Assembly: GCA_041485695.1 (NCBI GenBank)
Contig: JBGPJZ010000003.1
Span: 1 to 57,113 of the forward strand
DNA from: Minisyncoccia bacterium
GTDB lineage: Bacteria > Patescibacteriota > Minisyncoccia > Phycocordibacterales > Phycocordibacteraceae
Direction: 5' to 3'
DNA length: 57,113 bases
Of this stretch, positions 35,658 through 43,739 are shown one piece after another. The notes under the pieces are model-generated. The model did not search any database, had not been told where the DNA came from, and saw nothing but the letters and a program-made list of their open reading frames with translations. Numbering within the stretch: the stretch's first letter is position 1; every line of letters starts with the position of its first letter. A program made the translations under genes and the position numbers.

Positions 35658-36227
35658 CTAGTCGTTCGGATTGAACACACGATACTCATCAGGACTAATA
35701 AGTACAGTGAAAGCCGAAAGGACGGCCTGTGTGATGATCGACTCGCGATCGAGTATCCCTTTTGAAAGGTATTTGTGAGGATCTTTCTCTCCGCCGCCAG
35801 CGCATCTTTGGATGATGGTGCCGATTTCAGTCTTCTGTTCCTGAACTTCAGTCACCATCCACGTCGGAATCGGTAGACCAGCGCCGACCGAACGACCTTG
35901 AATCTGCCAACGCGGATACACAATGGCGACTGCCGGTGGATCAAACCAGCGACCATCGATTTGGACAAGACCGTTTTCGATACCGATGCCAATCTCCGCA
36001 TTATGGGCCTCGCGCGCTAATCGCGCGCGATTAAGCGCGCCTGTGAACATTTCATCGAAACCGAAAGGTTGCGCGGGTATACCAGATTCAGTTTCCTCGC
36101 TCCTAAGTTCATAGGGAGAAAGAGGCAAGTCACCCATCTTCGTTATGTCGTGCTCAATGAGCTTCTGAATCGCCTTCTCTACCGCACGAATCTTAAGGGC
36201 ACTTTTCGTGCCGACTACAATAATCAT
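35658..36227 (-). CDS. yjjX: Inosine/xanthosine triphosphatase (YjjX/DUF84 family)
   Basis: VVGTKSALKIRAV, SGIPAQP, GALNRA, GIGIENG. Confidence 0.85.
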   Translation of the reverse strand: MIIVVGTKSALKIRAVEKAIQKLIEHDITKMGDLPLSPYELRSEETESGIPAQPFGFDEMFTGALNRARLAREAHNAEIGIGIENGLVQIDGRWFDPPAVAIVYPRWQIQGRSVGAGLPIPTWMVTEVQEQKTEIGTIIQRCAGGGEKDPHKYLSKGILDRESIITQAVLSAFTVLISPDEYRVFNPND

Positions 36228-36376
36228 TGCAATCCCCGTAAAGAACTACCGGGGGTACTCTACGCTACGCGAAAGAAGACGCAAGTCACTACTTGAACGA
36301 CTCGGGGATGGGGTGCGCGAGGATCGTCATGGACGATATGTTTGATCTTTCGTTTCAAAACAATAGTTTGTCTCAC

Positions 36377-36396
36377 TGGTATGATATATCATACCA
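36377..36396. promoter_or_regulatory. 20-bp perfect palindrome TGGTATGATATATCATACCA (copy 2)
   Basis: Identical to the core of the palindrome at 36835. Starts 9 nt past the stop of the TrpR-like gene. Confidence 0.8.
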
Positions 36397-36405
36397 ACTA
36401 GCGAA

Positions 36406-36831
36406 CTATCCGGAGAGAGATGCGCTCAAGAACTTCCACCGGCCGCGGCCTGCGCGCGGCGGCATACCAAAGTGAATCACGCGGACCAGCTCATCCATGA
36501 ACGTTTCGCGTTTGAAGTGTTGCGTATGCTCGCGTGCGTAGCGCGTAATGTGGTCGTACTTCCCCGCCTTCACGTCCTTCCATACACGGATGACGGTTTG
36601 ACGAGTAACGCCAAGCGCATCCTGGATTTGAGTAAAGGAGTACTTACGCACCAAAAGGACGACTGTAGCGAGTCGTTTCGCGAGCATTACTCGCTCGGTT
36701 TGCGAGAGGAGTTCATTTGCAAGTATGCGCGCTTCTTTCTTACTCTGTGCGAGAGATAGAAATGTCAAAAACTGATCCGCGAGCTCCGTTGTCACCTCTT
36801 TCTTTATCCGTTTTTTCGAAACATGCGGCAT
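36406..36831 (-). CDS. TrpR-like (YerC/YecD) transcriptional regulator
   Basis: ELLSQTERVMLAKRL...YSFTQIQDALGVTRQTV. Confidence 0.85.
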   Translation of the reverse strand: MPHVSKKRIKKEVTTELADQFLTFLSLAQSKKEARILANELLSQTERVMLAKRLATVVLLVRKYSFTQIQDALGVTRQTVIRVWKDVKAGKYDHITRYAREHTQHFKRETFMDELVRVIHFGMPPRAGRGRWKFLSASLSG

Positions 36832-36834
36832 AGG

Positions 36835-36862
36835 TAAATGGTATGATATATCATACCATTTA
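36835..36862. promoter_or_regulatory. 28-bp perfect palindrome overlapping the extended -10 (TGgTATGAT) of the TrpR-like gene
   Basis: taaatggtatgatatatcataccattta, 3 nt from the start codon. Confidence 0.85.
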
Positions 36863-36888
36863 GTACCTGCTCAATTCTAACCTGCTTT

Positions 36889-38148
36889 TTACTCGAACGA
36901 TTCGGGGATGGGATGGACGAGAGCCATTGAGCGGATTTGTTTTCGGGCATTTGCGACGGTCTTTTTATCGCGCTTGGTGAGTACCTCGAGCATTATCTCG
37001 GCGACGCGGGCACAATCTTTCGCCTTGAAGCCGCGGGTTGTGAGTGCTGGGGTACCGAAGCGGATACCGGAGGGGTCCATCGGCTTACGCGTATCATCTG
37101 CGATTGCGTTCTTGTTGAGCGTGATGCCCGCTTCGTCTAAAAGCTTCTCCGCTTCACCACCCGAAATATTGAGCGAGGAAAATACATCGGCCAAGATAAG
37201 GTGATTATCCGTGCCGCCCGTCATGAGCCGCACCCCGCCCTTTTTAAAGACCTCCGCCATCGCCTTAGCATTTAGTACGACTTGTTTTGCATATTTTTTG
37301 AATGAAGGATCCAGTGCCTCACCAAACGCCACTGCCTTTGCCGCAATTTGGTGCATATGTGGCCCACCCTGGAAGCCCGGGAACACTGCCTTATCTACCT
37401 TTTTCGCGAGCTCTTCACTCTCTCGCACTAAGATGAGCCCGCCGCGCGGGCCACGCAAAGTCTTATGCGTCGTGGTCGTCATGAGGTCGAAACCGTAATC
37501 AAAAGGATTTTTTGCTGCGCCTCCGGCGATGAGCCCCGCGATATGCGCGACATCCGCCATCGAGTACGCCCCGACTTCTTTTGCGATACTCGCAATCTTC
37601 TTCCAATCTAATTCGCGTGGGTAGGCCGAGAAGCCGCCTAGGATGACCTTCGGCTTTTCTTTGAGCGCCGTCGCGCGAAGCGCGTCGTAGTCAATCTCGC
37701 CTGTCTCAACATTTTTCATCTTGTACCGGATGAAACGGAAGATTTTCGAGATGTAGGTCACCGGGTGGCCATGGGTCAGGTGCCCGCCGTGCGAGAGGTC
37801 CATGCCGAGGATGGTGTCGCCTGGCTCGCACATGGCGAAATAGGCCGCGATGTTGGCGTTTGCGCCGCCCAAAGGCTGCACGTTCGCAAACTTCGCGCCA
37901 AAAAGCTTTTTGGCGCGTTCAATCGCAAGCAGCTCTACCTTGTCGGTAAACTCTTGGCCGCCGTAGTAGCGTTTCCCCGGATACCCTTCAGAATATTTGT
38001 TCGTAAGCGAGGAGGCCATCGCCTCCTTCACCGCGCGCGAGACGTAATTCTCTGAAGGGATGAGCTCGAGCCCTTCTTTTTGCCGTTTCTCTTCGCCCAT
38101 CAAAAGGTCGTAGAGTTTCTTGTCTTCTTTTTTGATGTGCTCGTACAT
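36889..38148 (-). CDS. glyA: Serine hydroxymethyltransferase
   Basis: LIPSEN, EGYPGKRYYGG, TTTTHKTLRGPRGG, GIRFGTPALTTRG. Confidence 0.99.
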   Translation of the reverse strand: MYEHIKKEDKKLYDLLMGEEKRQKEGLELIPSENYVSRAVKEAMASSLTNKYSEGYPGKRYYGGQEFTDKVELLAIERAKKLFGAKFANVQPLGGANANIAAYFAMCEPGDTILGMDLSHGGHLTHGHPVTYISKIFRFIRYKMKNVETGEIDYDALRATALKEKPKVILGGFSAYPRELDWKKIASIAKEVGAYSMADVAHIAGLIAGGAAKNPFDYGFDLMTTTTHKTLRGPRGGLILVRESEELAKKVDKAVFPGFQGGPHMHQIAAKAVAFGEALDPSFKKYAKQVVLNAKAMAEVFKKGGVRLMTGGTDNHLILADVFSSLNISGGEAEKLLDEAGITLNKNAIADDTRKPMDPSGIRFGTPALTTRGFKAKDCARVAEIMLEVLTKRDKKTVANARKQIRSMALVHPIPESFE

Positions 38149-38154
38149 GCAAAT

Positions 38155-39162
38155 CTATTTTAAGCGCTTCTTCTTAGGTGCGTGGAGCTTCGGATTGTAG
38201 CCGCCCACGATCGCAAGCTCCGCCTTTATAGGCGGATGCGGGTTGTAGTTCACGAGCTCGACATGCTCGGGTCTGAACGTATCGGGCGATTTGAAATGGC
38301 GGGTGAATTTCACAGTCGGGAAAGGGCGCGGCCTGCGTGCAAGCTGTTCTCTCGCCTGCACCCGGTGGCTCTCATACACGTGAAGGTCACCGAAGGTGTG
38401 GATAAACTCCCCGGGCTTCCGCCCCAAAATCTTGGCGATGATGCAGGTCAAAAGCGCGTACGAGGCGATGTTGAAGGGTACGCCGAGAAAGATGTCGGCA
38501 GAACGTTGATAGAGTTGGAGGCACACCTTCCCGCGCTTTATATTGATCTGATACATATTGTGGCAAATGGGGAAACGCGCTCCCTTACCCGGTTTGGCCA
38601 TCGAATAGAGGAACTCCGGATTCCACGATGAGACGAGTGTGTTGTGTGCGTGGGGGTCTTTGCGAAGCTCCTCAATCACCCACGAAAGCTGGTCGATATT
38701 GCGCCCGTCGGAGGCAGGCCACGCCCGCCACATCTCGCCGTAGATGTGCGGCAGGTGTCCCCATCGTTTTGCGAACGCATCGTCTGTCTCAAGCCGCTGT
38801 ACGAACTCTTCCTTAAGGAGCTCCTTCCTGCCCTTCTTCTTCATCTGTTCGTTGTAGATGCGAAAGGGGTAATCATCCCAGATATGAACCCCTTCTCGCG
38901 CGAGGTAGCTGACATTCGTCTGCCCAGAAAGAAACCAGTAGAGCTCGTGCAAGACGCCCTTCCAAAATACTTTCTTGGTCGTGAGGACGGGGATGCCCTC
39001 GGACAGGTCGAAACGGATCTGCCGACCGAACACACTATAGGTGACTGCGCCCGTGCCGTGGTCAACCTGCTTCTCGCCCTTTTCGAGCGTCTCCTTCAAG
39101 AGGTCGAGATACTGGTATTCAGGATGGCGGCCTGCCCGCCTAGGAGGGTTATTTTTTGCCAC
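38155..39162 (-). CDS. thyA: Thymidylate synthase
   Basis: LTTKK, ELYWFLSG, FPICH, YQRSADIFLGVPFNIASY. Start set at GTG 39162. Confidence 0.96.
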   Translation of the reverse strand: MAKNNPPRRAGRHPEYQYLDLLKETLEKGEKQVDHGTGAVTYSVFGRQIRFDLSEGIPVLTTKKVFWKGVLHELYWFLSGQTNVSYLAREGVHIWDDYPFRIYNEQMKKKGRKELLKEEFVQRLETDDAFAKRWGHLPHIYGEMWRAWPASDGRNIDQLSWVIEELRKDPHAHNTLVSSWNPEFLYSMAKPGKGARFPICHNMYQINIKRGKVCLQLYQRSADIFLGVPFNIASYALLTCIIAKILGRKPGEFIHTFGDLHVYESHRVQAREQLARRPRPFPTVKFTRHFKSPDTFRPEHVELVNYNPHPPIKAELAIVGGYNPKLHAPKKKRLK

Positions 39163-39706
39163 GGCGTTTTTTCTCGGCGACAAAATGCTTCCAATTATTC
39201 CTGGCGAAACGGCCAGTGTCTTCATAGGTCTTTGAGGGCGGCGACGTGAGCATCGAAAAAGTGATTTGGGCAATCTTCATGCTGGGCCGGAGCACAATAG
39301 GGACATTGCTCTGGTTCGTTATCTCGAACGTGACGTTCAAGAAGTGTCCCGGGTTGATGATGCCCGCCGTGTTGTGCACCATGAGCCCGATACGCGCCAA
39401 GGACGACTTGCCATTCAACTGTATCAAGAAATAATTCGAGCCAAAGAACTCCTTCGAGGTCCCGAGGACGGAGATCCCCGGGTGGAGGATGTAGGGTTCT
39501 CCGTCTTTGATTGAGAACTGACGCGTCTTAGCGAAGATCTTTTTGACGGGGTCGATAAGATGCGTAGCCCCCTCGTCGTTCACGATGAATTTGTTGCCAA
39601 GGCAGATGTCGTAGCTCGCCTGCTGGAGCTGGTCCTCGTGAAAAGGCCGGAGGAGGATGCGCTTCGACTCAATCTCCCTCTTGATGTCGCGGTCAGAAAG
39701 AAACAT
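39149..39706 (-). CDS. dcd: dCTP deaminase
   Basis: LSDRDI, QQASYD, GKSSLARIGL, TFEITN. Confidence 0.88.
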   Translation of the reverse strand: MFLSDRDIKREIESKRILLRPFHEDQLQQASYDICLGNKFIVNDEGATHLIDPVKKIFAKTRQFSIKDGEPYILHPGISVLGTSKEFFGSNYFLIQLNGKSSLARIGLMVHNTAGIINPGHFLNVTFEITNQSNVPIVLRPSMKIAQITFSMLTSPPSKTYEDTGRFARNNWKHFVAEKKRRGKK

Positions 39707-39715
39707 GGACGTTGA

Positions 39716-40279
39716 TTATACCTGGCGCTCCTCGCCGTGCGAGACTCGGCCGCCCTGGTGCTGGCCGCGATATGCGATCGTCTCGCCCTCGATCGTATGA
39801 AAGACGATGTTGCAGATGCGCGCACCAAGCTGGAGCTTGACGAGAAATGGCCCAAGATTGGTGAGCCCTAGCGTGAGCTGCCCTTTGTAGCCCGGGTCAG
39901 TTTTGGTAACAAGGAGGAGGAGCCCGGCGCGAAAAAGCGAGCTCCGTGGATAGAGCATCGGCATGAGGTCGAGCGGCGTATTAATCGTTTCGGCTGTTTG
40001 CACGAGATAATACTCGCCCGGCGCGACCACAAGCTCGTCTTGCACATCACCTTCTTTCAGTTTGAAAATCTCTTCGGTCTTCACGCCGTGCCGCCGGCCG
40101 AGGCCGGCGGCACCGTCGGCCTCAATGTACGCGCCACCCTCCACAATCTTATGAACAGCACCGAGCCGCAAATCAATACCGGTGCCTTCAGGAGCTGACA
40201 AATCGCGGCCACCAAGACCGGTGATAAGATCTTCTTCTTTGATTCTTCGTACGACCTCGTGGATGCCGATAACGGACAT
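39716..40279 (-). CDS. Trimeric dUTPase/dCTP-deaminase superfamily protein, probably dUTPase
   Basis: GIDLRL, PRSSLFRAG, TDPGYKGQL. Confidence 0.8.
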   Translation of the reverse strand: MSVIGIHEVVRRIKEEDLITGLGGRDLSAPEGTGIDLRLGAVHKIVEGGAYIEADGAAGLGRRHGVKTEEIFKLKEGDVQDELVVAPGEYYLVQTAETINTPLDLMPMLYPRSSLFRAGLLLLVTKTDPGYKGQLTLGLTNLGPFLVKLQLGARICNIVFHTIEGETIAYRGQHQGGRVSHGEERQV

Positions 40280-40297
40280 CCTGCTAGTATACCCAAG

Positions 40298-40840
40298 ATG
40301 AATAGAAAGGAGGATATTGACAGAGAGCCGAAAAATCCCCGAATAAGCAGCGTGGTTGCCTTAGGGAGAGATGGCCAGCATAACCGCGTTATTGGCAAGA
40401 ATAACGAGCTTTTATGGCATATTCCGGACGATCTCAAACGCTTCAAGGTCTTGACCCTCGGGCACCCGGTTATCATGGGCCGCAAGACCTTCGAATCGAT
40501 TATTTCCGTGCTCGGCAAAGCTCTCCCTGGTCGCACCAATATCGTCGTTACGCGAGACGCGGAGTGGTCGTATCCTGATGTGCTCGTTGCGTACTCGCTT
40601 GAAGAAGCGTTGGCAAAAGCCAGAGAACTTGATCGTGAAGAAATTTTTATCGGTGGCGGCACACAGATTTATGAGCAAGCACTGCCCTTTGTAGACCGCC
40701 TTTATCTCACTCTTATAGATGACGAAAAAGAAGGCGATTCATTCTTTCCTCCGTACGAAACCGAATTTACGAAAATAATCTCCGACGAATCGCGCGAATG
40801 GACTGGCCTCAACTACCGCTGGCTTACCCTAGAACGTTAG
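40298..40840 (+). CDS. folA: Dihydrofolate reductase
   Basis: VIGKNNELLWHIPDDLKRFK, IMGRKTFES, LPGRTNIVVT, IGGGTQIY. Confidence 0.96.
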   Translation: MNRKEDIDREPKNPRISSVVALGRDGQHNRVIGKNNELLWHIPDDLKRFKVLTLGHPVIMGRKTFESIISVLGKALPGRTNIVVTRDAEWSYPDVLVAYSLEEALAKARELDREEIFIGGGTQIYEQALPFVDRLYLTLIDDEKEGDSFFPPYETEFTKIISDESREWTGLNYRWLTLER

Positions 40841-41568
40841 CGGCGTCGCCACTTACGTCCAGCGAAAAGAAGCGGAGCGAAAAGGTCGTCTTCAGGCGGA
40901 ACGACAAGCTGGTCTTTCGCGTGCGAACGGTTCTTAAAGACGATATTTTTGGTACCGCGCAAAACAACGATCGGGGTCTTTTCAGTTCCTTCGCCCATTT
41001 CGAGTACTGCAGTAGCTGCAAGAGCATCCGCAAGATTTGCCATTTCTATCTCGAACGAGCGACCGAAAAGATCCGGAGTCCCGCGATAATCTCGAAGCGG
41101 GTCGAATCCATCCCACGCGAGTGCGAATCCGACTGCCCCGCGACGGAGCGGCAAGCTCGTCGAGTCGGTGATGACGAGGCCGAGTCTTTTGACCCCATAT
41201 GCTTTCATAAAATGACGACGTAGACTTTTCGCACTGTGGAAAGGATCTTTGGGATAAAGGACGTAGTGACCGTTCCCATTGCTTTCATCGATGCCAGCTG
41301 AGCCGACCAACATACCTCGCGCAAGAGTAAAAAGTCGCCGATATCGAGAGCGTAATGGCTTAAAATACATATCCGCCTCGGCACGAATGAGATTCTGCTT
41401 GTTTGCGTCTTTTACAGGAATGCAGCGACCCTCATCGATACTTACGACCTTTGAGGCAATCACCAAAATGTCGCCGTCTTTAAGGGAGAGCCGGGACGCG
41501 CGGATTGCTTGGAAGAGATCGTCCTTAGGCGGGATAAGAGGCCGGAGTTTGTAGGAGAGCACCTGCAT
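40837..41568 (-). CDS. CofE-family gamma-glutamyl ligase (F420-0:glutamate ligase/FolC2-like)
   Basis: IASKVVS, AGIDESN, ITDS, PDLFGR, ADALAA...MGEG.EKTPI. Confidence 0.85.
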   Translation of the reverse strand: MQVLSYKLRPLIPPKDDLFQAIRASRLSLKDGDILVIASKVVSIDEGRCIPVKDANKQNLIRAEADMYFKPLRSRYRRLFTLARGMLVGSAGIDESNGNGHYVLYPKDPFHSAKSLRRHFMKAYGVKRLGLVITDSTSLPLRRGAVGFALAWDGFDPLRDYRGTPDLFGRSFEIEMANLADALAATAVLEMGEGTEKTPIVVLRGTKNIVFKNRSHAKDQLVVPPEDDLFAPLLFAGRKWRRR

Positions 41569-41583
41569 AGCGGCCGGTCATAC

Positions 41584-42003
41584 TTACTTGACGTCGATGC
41601 CCATGGAGCGGGCGGTGCCGGCAATGAGACGCTCGGCAGCTTCGAGGGAGCCCGCATTGAGGTCCGGCATCTTTTCCTCGGCAATTTGCTTCACTTGCGC
41701 TTTCGTGATTGAACCGGCTTTTTCAACGGGCGTTTTGCCCGAACCCTTTTCAAGGCCTGCCGCTTTCAAGATGAGGCGCGAGGCAGGCGAGGTCTTGAGG
41801 ACGAAGCTGAATGAGCGGTCGTCGAAGACCGAGAGGTCGACGGGGATAATCGAACCGATTTTATCTTTGGTCGCCTCATTAAACTGGGTCACGAATTGGC
41901 CGATATTGATGCCGGCCGGACCAAGCACAGTGCCGACCGGGGGCGCAGGGGTAGCCTTCCCTGCCGGGAGCTGGAGTTTAATCTTTTTAACGACTTGAGC
42001 CAT
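41584..42003 (-). CDS. rplK: 50S ribosomal protein L11
   Basis: [19 protein letters not shown]. Confidence 0.99.
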
Positions 42004-42019
42004 AGGGGTTGAGACTACC

Positions 42020-42664
42020 TTAGAGCTTGCGAACTTGCAAAAAGTCGAGCTCGACAGGCGTCTCGCGGCCGAACATCGAGACCATCACCTTGACCTTGCC
42101 GCGATCCTCATCAATATCGCCGACCTTGCCCTCAAGGTCCTTAAAGGGCCCGTCAGCGATAACGACCGGGTCGTCTTTAACGAGGTCAATTTTGTGCTTC
42201 GGCGCTTCGGCCTTCATCCGTTTCATAAGCGTCGCCACCTCGGCTTCGTCCATCGGCACCGGAGTCGTGCCGCTCCCGACAAAGCCCGTCACTCTTGGGG
42301 TGTTGCGAACGACAAACCATGAGTCGTCGTCGACAATCATGCGCACTAAGATGTAGCCAGGATAGATCTTCTCCTCCTCGACAATGCGCTTCCCTGCTTT
42401 GACGCGGATCTTTTTCTCGGTAGGGACGATAACGCTGAAGATCTTGTCTTCCATGCCGAGAGAATCGATGCGCTGTTTCAAGTTGCGTTCGACCGCGTTC
42501 TCATACCCTGCGTAGGTGTGGATGGCGTACCACCGTGCATCTTCAGGGTTCGGCTTCGTTTCATCCTTAACTACTTTGACAACGCCTGGCGCTATGTCGG
42601 CCATCCCGATTTCTTCAAGGAGCTCCTCTGTCGATTCGCCACTGTGAATTGGGTGTTCGTCCAT
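42020..42664 (-). CDS. nusG: Transcription factor NusG with acidic N-terminal extension
   Basis: [46 protein letters not shown]. Confidence 0.97.
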
Positions 42665-42668
42665 ACGC

Positions 42669-42845
42669 TTAAGCGCCAATGACGCGGCTTACCACGAGGC
42701 CAAAGCCGTAGTCGAGAATGCCAACCAGCGCAGCGATGGCAAGCGCGATGCCGATGACGACAAGCGTGTGGGCGACCGCTGTATACGTCGAAGGCCACGC
42801 GACGTGGACGAGCTCCGAGCGAACGTGTTTTAAGTAATCCAACAT
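42669..42845 (-). CDS. secE: Preprotein translocase SecE (58 aa, not in ORF track)
   Basis: MLDYLKHVRSELVHVAWPS...GILDYGF, directly upstream of nusG. Confidence 0.92.
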   Translation of the reverse strand: MLDYLKHVRSELVHVAWPSTYTAVAHTLVVIGIALAIAALVGILDYGFGLVVSRVIGA

Positions 42846-42889
42846 AAATGTGAGGTATTAAAAAACCCCTGCGGGGTTCGATACCCAGC

Positions 42890-42918
42890 ATCATAGTATG
42901 TGGCGTGCGCGGCGTCAA
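42890..42918 (-). promoter_or_regulatory. Promoter of secE-nusG-rplK, TTGACG-N17-TATGAT
   Basis: Near-consensus hexamers with a 17-nt spacer. Confidence 0.75.
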
Positions 42919-42935
42919 GCCTACCGGCAGGCAGG

Positions 42936-43739
42936 CTACCGGATCTCGTAGGTAATTGAGACGTTCGAGCTGTATTCGTTCTCACCCACCGGGATTTGCG
43001 GAGCAGGCGCGCTGTCGGCTGACACTCCTCCGCCCTTGCCATACATTGCGTAGATTGGATAATTGCCGCCCTCAGAGAAGTTCACGATGCGTACGAGGCG
43101 TACGCCAAGTTCTTTTGCGAGCTCATTGGCTTGTGCTTTCGCATCAGTAATCGCCTTAGTACGCGCTTGATTCTGCACCGAGGTCGGGTCATCAAGAGCA
43201 AAGTCAGGTCCATTTACATTCTGTACGTTTTGCTTGCCGAGCCCGGCAAGGAGGGTGCTCACTTTGATGAGATTGCGCACCGTAATCTGCATCGTCTCCG
43301 CTACTTGGTACCCCGTGATTTTCGGAGAATTGTCGTAGTACTGGGGGCAGAGCGACCCTGCGGGGCACGGGTTCGGGTACGCGTATTGCGGTGAAATGCT
43401 GTAGGAGAGCGTCTTCACGTCTTTTTCGGCAACCCCCTGCCCTTTCACGTACTCGATCGCGGCGTTGGCTTGTTTGGTGGTCGCATCCTGCGCGTCTGAA
43501 ACGGTTGCGGCCGTATGCTGTACGGTAAAGGTGACATGGGCGATGTCGGGCGGCGCCATCACCGAACCGGTACCAGAAACGGTGACGGTGTTCATCGCCG
43601 GTGTCTGCGGCCGCCCGACTTCGCCCAAGCCAGTAAGCGTCTCAACGAGCAAGAATAGGCCGAGCATTGAGAGGGCGGCGACTGCGGCCCATTCGATATG
43701 CTTTGGCGGTGAAATATGCAGAGTTTTTTCTTCGTTCAT
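42936..43739 (-). CDS. SIMPL (DUF541) domain protein
   Basis: TVTVSGTGSVMAPPD, AITDAKAQANELAKELGVRL, VSITYEIR. Confidence 0.92.
   Translation of the reverse strand: MNEEKTLHISPPKHIEWAAVAALSMLGLFLLVETLTGLGEVGRPQTPAMNTVTVSGTGSVMAPPDIAHVTFTVQHTAATVSDAQDATTKQANAAIEYVKGQGVAEKDVKTLSYSISPQYAYPNPCPAGSLCPQYYDNSPKITGYQVAETMQITVRNLIKVSTLLAGLGKQNVQNVNGPDFALDDPTSVQNQARTKAITDAKAQANELAKELGVRLVRIVNFSEGGNYPIYAMYGKGGGVSADSAPAPQIPVGENEYSSNVSITYEIR

Follow-up and report, generated by a model that had tools for sequence, protein, structure and literature searches.

We analyzed a cofE-like gene next to folA in a 57,113-nucleotide stretch of DNA from a Minisyncoccia bacterium of the phylum Patescibacteriota (GenBank assembly GCA_041485695.1, contig JBGPJZ010000003.1). 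This stretch, referred to as the window, is contig C3 of a genome of 619,902 bp that comprises 12 contigs and is ~97% complete. Judging from its sequence and genomic setting, the gene is likely to encode a FolC2-type folate gamma-glutamyl ligase. A first-pass annotation of the window had proposed that this gene, clustered with those of the thymidylate cycle, takes the place of FolC and polyglutamylates scavenged folate rather than F420. The FolC2 idea as such is not new. It dates from 2007, and some homologues are already named accordingly, as 'putative folate metabolism gamma-glutamate ligase' by NCBI (62% identical) or as 'dihydrofolate synthase / folylpolyglutamate synthase' by JGI; most others are named as F420 ligases. 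In the literature, we found no paper on FolC2 or polyglutamylation in the candidate phyla radiation (CPR), and a study of CPR folate metabolism (PMC11974145) is silent on both.

A CofE-fold protein that scores best with a folate-linked family

PF01996 is the sole domain in the 243-residue protein. The match covers profile positions 5-218 of 218 and exceeds the gathering score of 25 (Table 1), Mur-ligase domains are absent, and the genome has one PF01996 copy. Of the NCBIfam models, TIGR04132 ('putative folate metabolism gamma-glutamate ligase') scores best with 200.1 bits, followed by the CofE model TIGR01916 with 150.5 bits, which is below its equivalog cut-off of 180.65. All nine homologues tested (9/9) repeat this ranking of TIGR04132 above CofE. 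Among proteins of known structure, Af-CofE is matched with an E-value of 1e-29. An AlphaFold model, which rests on an alignment of 28 homologues, has a predicted local distance difference test score (pLDDT) of 86.8 and a predicted template modeling score (pTM) of 0.86, and its top Foldseek match is again Af-CofE (7uld; template modeling score 0.80, E 6e-20, 33% identity), with the next, unrelated match at E 0.6. The protein thus has the CofE fold. Residues K40, G92, D94, T134, D135, D166 and M191-G192-E193 are invariant in the 28 sequences and align with Af-CofE, by analogy to which they would bind GTP, metal or glutamate. The gene's nearest relatives in public databases carry the labels Candidatus Kaiserbacteria, Paceibacterota or Parcubacteria.

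PF01996 proteins of the phylum are of two kinds: group A, which includes the window protein and has TIGR04132 as its best model, and group B, which scores above the CofE equivalog cut-off or only just misses it. The core motifs SKxxS, AGIDESN, ITDS, DxFGR and MGE are kept across 27 relatives and are common to both groups in a joint alignment. The groups differ in one segment. In Af-CofE, the stretch G153-C155 faces the front of the F420 chromophore (PMC10861534). G153-R154-C155 aligns with S138-L139-P140 of the window protein, and the consensus of this region is TDSxxxPLRxG in group A versus xDSxGRxxRxG in group B. Af-CofE F92 aligns with F80 of the window protein at a position that is variable within group A, and the chromophore contact R234 (R234') falls outside the reliable part of the alignment. 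Group A also has a conserved C-terminal ED-D[LVM][FY]xP[LF] motif and a basic tail. These motif differences fit, rather than prove, an altered head-group specificity.

Members of group B on four records (Table 1) pass the TIGR01916 cut-off with 190-238 bits; to our knowledge, the phylum is not expected to make F420. Two borderline group-B relatives (L052, L058) lie near formyltransferase genes. Group-A homologues with 41-46% identity were seen on records labelled Reyranella, Rhodopila, Alphaproteobacteria, Opitutales, Puniceicoccales, Sulfotelmatobacter and 'archaeon' (L091, L150, L137, L128, L135, L131, L101 and L108), with ATP-grasp, RibD_C-like and folD genes as neighbours in L131. These occurrences could represent a wide distribution of group A or mis-binned CPR contigs.

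Folate and F420 genes of the genome

A search of the genome with the FolC model TIGR01499 gave nothing over its cut-off and a single weak match, to MurE. We considered whether a FolC could be hidden among the Mur ligases and rejected this, as the three paralogues are MurE, MurC and MurF (MurD is not picked up by PF08245). FolP was not found in the genome, whereas FolD and two formyltransferases are present, from which the organism is predicted to use folate and to be unable to make it. CofD (PF01933) and CofC (PF01983) were not found either, with FO synthase (CofG/CofH) not searched, nor were luciferase-like F420 enzymes (PF00296), with other F420-dependent families not searched. Within that scope, the absence of folC and of F420 genes, which the first-pass annotation had set out as checks of its proposal, holds in this genome.

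A true CofE, an F420-0:L-glutamate ligase whose substrate, F420 or F420-0, comes from neighbouring organisms, would account for the PF01996 membership, the CofE fold, the public name 'coenzyme F420-0:L-glutamate ligase' of many homologues and the Phe that aligns with Af-CofE F92 in the closest relatives. We nevertheless rate it as very improbable and as the least probable of all the readings discussed here, since the protein misses the CofE equivalog cut-off, the chromophore-contacting G-R-C is replaced by S-L-P, the F92 equivalent is not conserved in group A, and none of the F420 genes searched for were found in the genome. The higher score of the folate-linked model and the lack of CofC and CofD favor folate over F420 as the putative substrate, as the first-pass annotation had suggested.

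Recurrent linkage to folate genes

Within the genus, the gene order is SIMPL-nusG-rplK-[slot]-folA-(dcd2)-dcd-thyA-glyA. The form with the cofE-like gene in the slot, SIMPL-nusG-rplK-[cofE-like]-folA-dcd-thyA-glyA, is repeated in four further congeners and ~18 species-level records, and the arrangement is therefore not due to chance. The slot carries the cofE-like gene in genomes G000, G003, G028 and G020, and two copies of it in G018.

Beyond the genus, we scanned one genome per species and found group-A relatives in at least 551 species, of which the best 80 loci were analyzed. A folate-enzyme gene lies within 4 kb in 28 of these 80 loci. In ~18 of the 28, the order is rplK-cofE-folA, a single inherited pattern; at least 10 are arranged differently, in other classes and without rplK. 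These include folA-thyA-glyA without rplK, glyA or folD adjoining the ligase gene, and a DHFR/RibD_C-like reductase directly downstream of it. The lineages with these ~10 further folate-linked loci are Woesebacteria, Roizmanbacteria, Peribacteria and Saccharimonadia. Chlamydia is absent among the best 80 loci. In a separate sample, folA, cofE, thyA and glyA adjoin in G166; the cofE gene overlaps a DHFR/RibD_C-like gene in G143, with thyA 2 kb away; a further folate-linked locus with a different arrangement occurs in G098; and cofE overlaps an ATP-grasp ligase gene in G215. The synteny survey suggested by the first-pass annotation thus shows that linkage to folate genes recurs in independent arrangements across Patescibacteria. 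Searches of the window's genome found no VUT/YhhQ carrier, 5-formyl-tetrahydrofolate cyclo-ligase, ATP-grasp ligase or RibD_C reductase; this genome has a minimal form with the ligase beside a canonical FolA and without carrier, reductase or ATP-grasp partners.

Distribution of the two ligase families

For the phylum, we used an even draw of 201 genomes, counting PF01996 matches at E <= 1e-15 and FolC matches over the model cut-off. PF01996 and FolC were each found in 37 of the 201 genomes, yet only one genome has both, compared with 6.8 expected (Fisher odds ratio 0.10, p 0.004); the single exception is an 85%-complete assembly of 150 contigs. The odds ratio for group A alone versus FolC is 0.15 (p 0.03), and no genome of the draw has group B and FolC together. 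These co-occurrence tests ignore kinship and their significance is overstated. Across the phylum, the two families almost exclude one another. Of the 37 PF01996 genomes, 21 have DHFR, as do 22 of the 37 FolC genomes and 83 of the 201 overall. The 83 with DHFR include the unpublished genome G214, on which no other result depends.

Among 61 sampled genomes of the window's own order, 36 have DHFR and 40 have ThyA. Strong PF01996 matches were found in seven of the 61, and DHFR and ThyA are both present in all seven.

Evidence against a folate role and alternative readings

Several observations weigh against the folate ligase reading, and most of them bear on a second one, in which a CofE-fold gamma-glutamyl ligase acts on a substrate other than folate or F420 (for instance the tail of a peptide or protein, or some other cofactor or metabolite with a carboxylate) and its adjacency to folA reflects inherited gene order. 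In the genus, the cofE-like gene and folA run towards each other; the former has the orientation of nusG-rplK and starts 15 bp after rplK, so that it shares a transcript with no folate gene. Among close relatives, the folate linkage is for the most part one inherited arrangement, and many group-A loci elsewhere have unrelated neighbours, with 52 of the best 80 showing no detectable folate neighbour. The TIGR04132 score misses the curated cut-off of 350 bits, as do those of all 12 Patescibacteria group-A homologues tested (range 155-245 bits). FolA-type DHFR is found in little more than half of the PF01996-positive genomes, as counted above, and both FolC and a strong PF01996 match are missing from 40 of the 83 genomes with DHFR. 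Glutamylation by the CofE-like enzyme must therefore be dispensable, and these organisms either use monoglutamyl folate or have another glutamylating enzyme. We nevertheless consider a substrate other than folate or F420, although the main alternative, to be clearly less likely than folate. At least 10 arrangements without rplK also involve folate genes, including overlaps with DHFR/RibD_C-like reductases, PF01996 and FolC are nearly exclusive, the best profile is that of a folate-linked family, and no neighbour hints at an alternative substrate.

The gene content of the slot is variable. It is empty in G007, G026 and G036 despite the same folA-dcd-thyA-glyA locus, and in three other congeners it holds other genes: a BtpA-like gene with an rve-family transposase (G017), an NT5C-like deoxynucleotidase (G021) and two open reading frames of no assigned family (G035). 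In a tree of glyA, nusG and rplK from 12 congeners, the carriers form one subclade with nested loss in G035 and G021. As it is missing in sister species that have this thymidylate locus, the cofE-like gene is accessory; it is neither a required replacement of FolC nor essential to the thymidylate cycle. Moreover, FolC is found in none of the 61 genomes of the order, with or without the cofE-like gene. The proposed replacement of FolC was thus stated too strongly in the first-pass annotation: the near-exclusivity across the phylum agrees with it, but the whole sampled order is without FolC regardless and close relatives have lost the gene. The claim of folate scavenging stands in the part that folate appears to be used and not made, while no folate importer was found in the genome among the families searched (VUT and energy-coupling factor S-components).

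A gene that is decaying or without function, and heading for the loss seen in sister species, would also show presence and absence at a single slot with a nested loss. This seems very improbable for the window's copy, which has an intact frame, keeps all family-invariant residues, is 59-80% identical to many full-length homologues and yields a confident structure model.

A family of ~238-residue proteins, absent from the window's genome, weakly matches the N-terminal two thirds of PF01996 (25-47 bits) in at least 18 of 36 congeners, two examples being given in Table 1 and ~16 further congeners having others. These were examined as a diverged, folate-linked substitute ligase and rejected, because they are unlinked to folA, are commoner in DHFR-negative genomes and resemble the CofE-like protein over ~50 N-terminal residues only.

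Comparison with known systems and proposed reaction

The closest described counterpart of the proposed folate ligase is FolC2 of Chlamydia trachomatis (CT611, COG1478), which complements an Escherichia coli folC mutant (PMC1971073); the first-pass annotation had named it as the folate glutamylating enzyme of Chlamydia. In the Chlamydia operon folB-folKP-folA-folC2-ct610, folC2 directly follows folA (PMC4161248). Both systems have a CofE-family protein encoded directly beside folA in an organism that lacks FolC as well as F420 genes, and the family of TIGR04132 is the best-scoring curated family for the window protein. The differences are substantial. By profile score (200 bits versus the cut-off of 350), the window protein belongs to a related clade and is not a demonstrated orthologue, which tells against the folate reading. 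The Chlamydia gene is inside a folate operon, whereas the window gene converges on folA behind rplK, and complementation was shown for CT611, whereas the window gene is known from sequence and model and is one that sister species can do without. Chlamydia synthesizes its own folate de novo, for which it depends on dihydrofolate synthase activity. With FolP missing from the window's genome, only tail extension of imported folate would be expected there.

CofE and FbiB's N-terminal domain (TIGR01916; PDB 2PHN, 7ULD) share with the window protein the fold, the core motifs and presumably the chemistry, but the window protein is below the equivalog cut-off, belongs to a genome without the F420 pathway genes CofC and CofD, reads S-L-P in place of G153-R154-C155 and has the extra C-terminal motif and basic tail of group A. 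FolC (TIGR01499), in contrast, is a Mur-ligase family enzyme of unrelated fold that uses ATP; it would share with the window protein the proposed reaction, gamma-glutamylation of folates, and is missing from the window's genome and the 61 sampled relatives of the order.

CofE activates its substrate as a GTP-dependent acyl-phosphate before gamma-glutamate is added (PMC8498797, PMC10861534). By analogy, the window protein would be a nucleotide-dependent enzyme, probably using GTP and a divalent metal, that forms an acyl-phosphate on the glutamate tail of a reduced folate, which L-glutamate then attacks to give a gamma-linked extension. In a cell without dihydropteroate synthesis, its role would be folylpolyglutamate synthesis that traps imported folate, and the trapped polyglutamyl folate may be better used by the neighbouring enzymes. 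In the predicted cycle, Dcd would convert dCTP to dUTP, the dUTPase-like Dcd2 dUTP to dUMP, and ThyA dUMP and methylene-tetrahydrofolate to dTMP and dihydrofolate; FolA would reduce dihydrofolate to tetrahydrofolate, and GlyA would regenerate methylene-tetrahydrofolate from tetrahydrofolate and serine.

Organization of the locus

The contiguity of glyA, thyA, dcd, the dUTPase-like gene and folA reported by the first-pass annotation is borne out by open reading frames, Pfam and NCBIfam (Table 1), with the addition that folA is on the forward strand. Since it is opposite to both flanking runs, the locus is made up of three transcription units, namely nusG-rplK-cofE-like, folA and dcd2-dcd-thyA-glyA. 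folA diverges from the last of these across an 18-bp gap and is convergent with the cofE-like gene, and the overlap of the latter with the folA stop, also noted in the first pass, is exact: the folA TAG is at 40838-40840 and the TAA of the cofE-like gene is the reverse complement of 40837-40839. Given its position and strand, the cofE-like gene is probably transcribed together with nusG-rplK. A scan of 36000-43200 for consensus promoters and terminators gave counts no different from those of shuffled sequences and was uninformative on operon structure.

Table 1. Features of the folate and thymidylate locus and of related loci; positions without a record number refer to the window
Feature	Position	Strand	Supporting matches
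glyA, serine hydroxymethyltransferase	36889-38148	-	PF00464 506.5 bits; NF000586 561.7 bits
thyA, thymidylate synthase	38155 to ~39225	-	PF00303 301.6 bits; TIGR03284 326 bits
dcd, dCTP deaminase	39149-39706	-	TIGR02274 139.6 bits (cut-off 92.8); PF22769 114.7 bits
dcd2, DCD-fold dUTPase-like paralogue	39716-40279	-	PF22769 (DCD) 94 bits; PF00692 (dUTPase) 34.5 bits
folA, dihydrofolate reductase (DHFR)	40298-40840	+	PF00186 (DHFR_1) E 3.5e-48; NCBIfam DHFR families also matched
cofE-like, CofE-family gamma-glutamyl ligase, putatively FolC2-like (group A), 243 aa	40837-41568	-	PF01996 132.7 bits
rplK, ribosomal protein L11	41584-42003	-	PF00298 and PF03946
nusG, head of the nusG-rplK-cofE-like run	42020-42679	-	PF02357 98.8 bits
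Variable-slot contents	L043:7491-9363		
Variable-slot contents	L046:7816-8433		
Variable-slot contents	L045:1718-4269		
Group-B protein	L051:7220-7948	+	passes TIGR01916
Group-B protein	L053:7050-7796	-	passes TIGR01916
Group-B protein	L055:6832-7641	-	passes TIGR01916
Group-B protein	L055:12063-12842	-	passes TIGR01916
Group-B protein	L056:1296-2210	-	passes TIGR01916
~238-residue family	L013:1423-2139	+	weak PF01996
~238-residue family	L020:1414-2127	-	weak PF01996

The start of thyA is uncertain because its open frame runs into the end of dcd; ATG 39225 and GTG 39162 are the candidates, and the frame is open to 39273. At 39149-39273, the 3' end of dcd is overlapped by up to 125 nt of this open frame in another frame, and overlaps of this type are seen in congeners as well. 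For folA, we place the start at ATG 40298, the alternatives being GTG 40259 or 40352. The dcd2 product is below all family cut-offs, with 86.7 bits for TIGR02274 (cut-off 92.8) and 71 bits for the archaeal-type dUTPase model PRK02253, and is 28% identical to that of dcd. It has Gly at the Glu of the dcd 'TFE' motif, which we take to be the catalytic residue of the deaminase; with this residue missing, a dUTPase role is a reasonable inference, and Dcd2 probably converts dUTP to dUMP. Among congeners, dcd2 has 84-86% identity, well above folA (~50%) and dcd (~56-64%), and several congeners are without it.

At 41568-42003, rplK is followed by the cofE-like gene and not by rplA, the usual next gene in a nusG-rplK-rplA operon. 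The reverse strand downstream of glyA encodes an NTPase resembling inosine/xanthosine triphosphatase at 35658-36227, with a score below cut-off, and a small protein that weakly matches TrpR at 36406-36831. The TrpR-like gene retains its position after glyA in G017 and G023. The two genes may broaden the link of the locus to nucleotide pools.

Implications for folate use in Patescibacteria

A broader picture can be offered tentatively, as a possibility that we still regard as doubtful. Group A might be a distinct and widespread clade of folate glutamylases with head-group elements of its own (TDSxxxPLRxG and the C-terminal ED-DLFxPL), acting as an optional 'folate trap' with gains and losses at the rplK-folA slot, while about half of the DHFR-bearing Patescibacteria, those with neither ligase, would live on monoglutamyl folate or have a third, undescribed glutamylase.

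If the folate ligase reading of the cofE-like gene is correct, thousands of Patescibacteria genes labelled 'coenzyme F420-0:L-glutamate ligase' would be misnamed, and F420 metabolism would have been wrongly inferred for a phylum without it. Recent work showed that CPR folA genes are functional and proposed them as the basis of host interactions that involve folate (PMC11974145), and a glutamylating enzyme would add a retention step to this picture of folate salvage in symbionts. A genus in which some members have the gene at this slot and others do not would then be a natural experiment on whether minimal cells need folate polyglutamylation.

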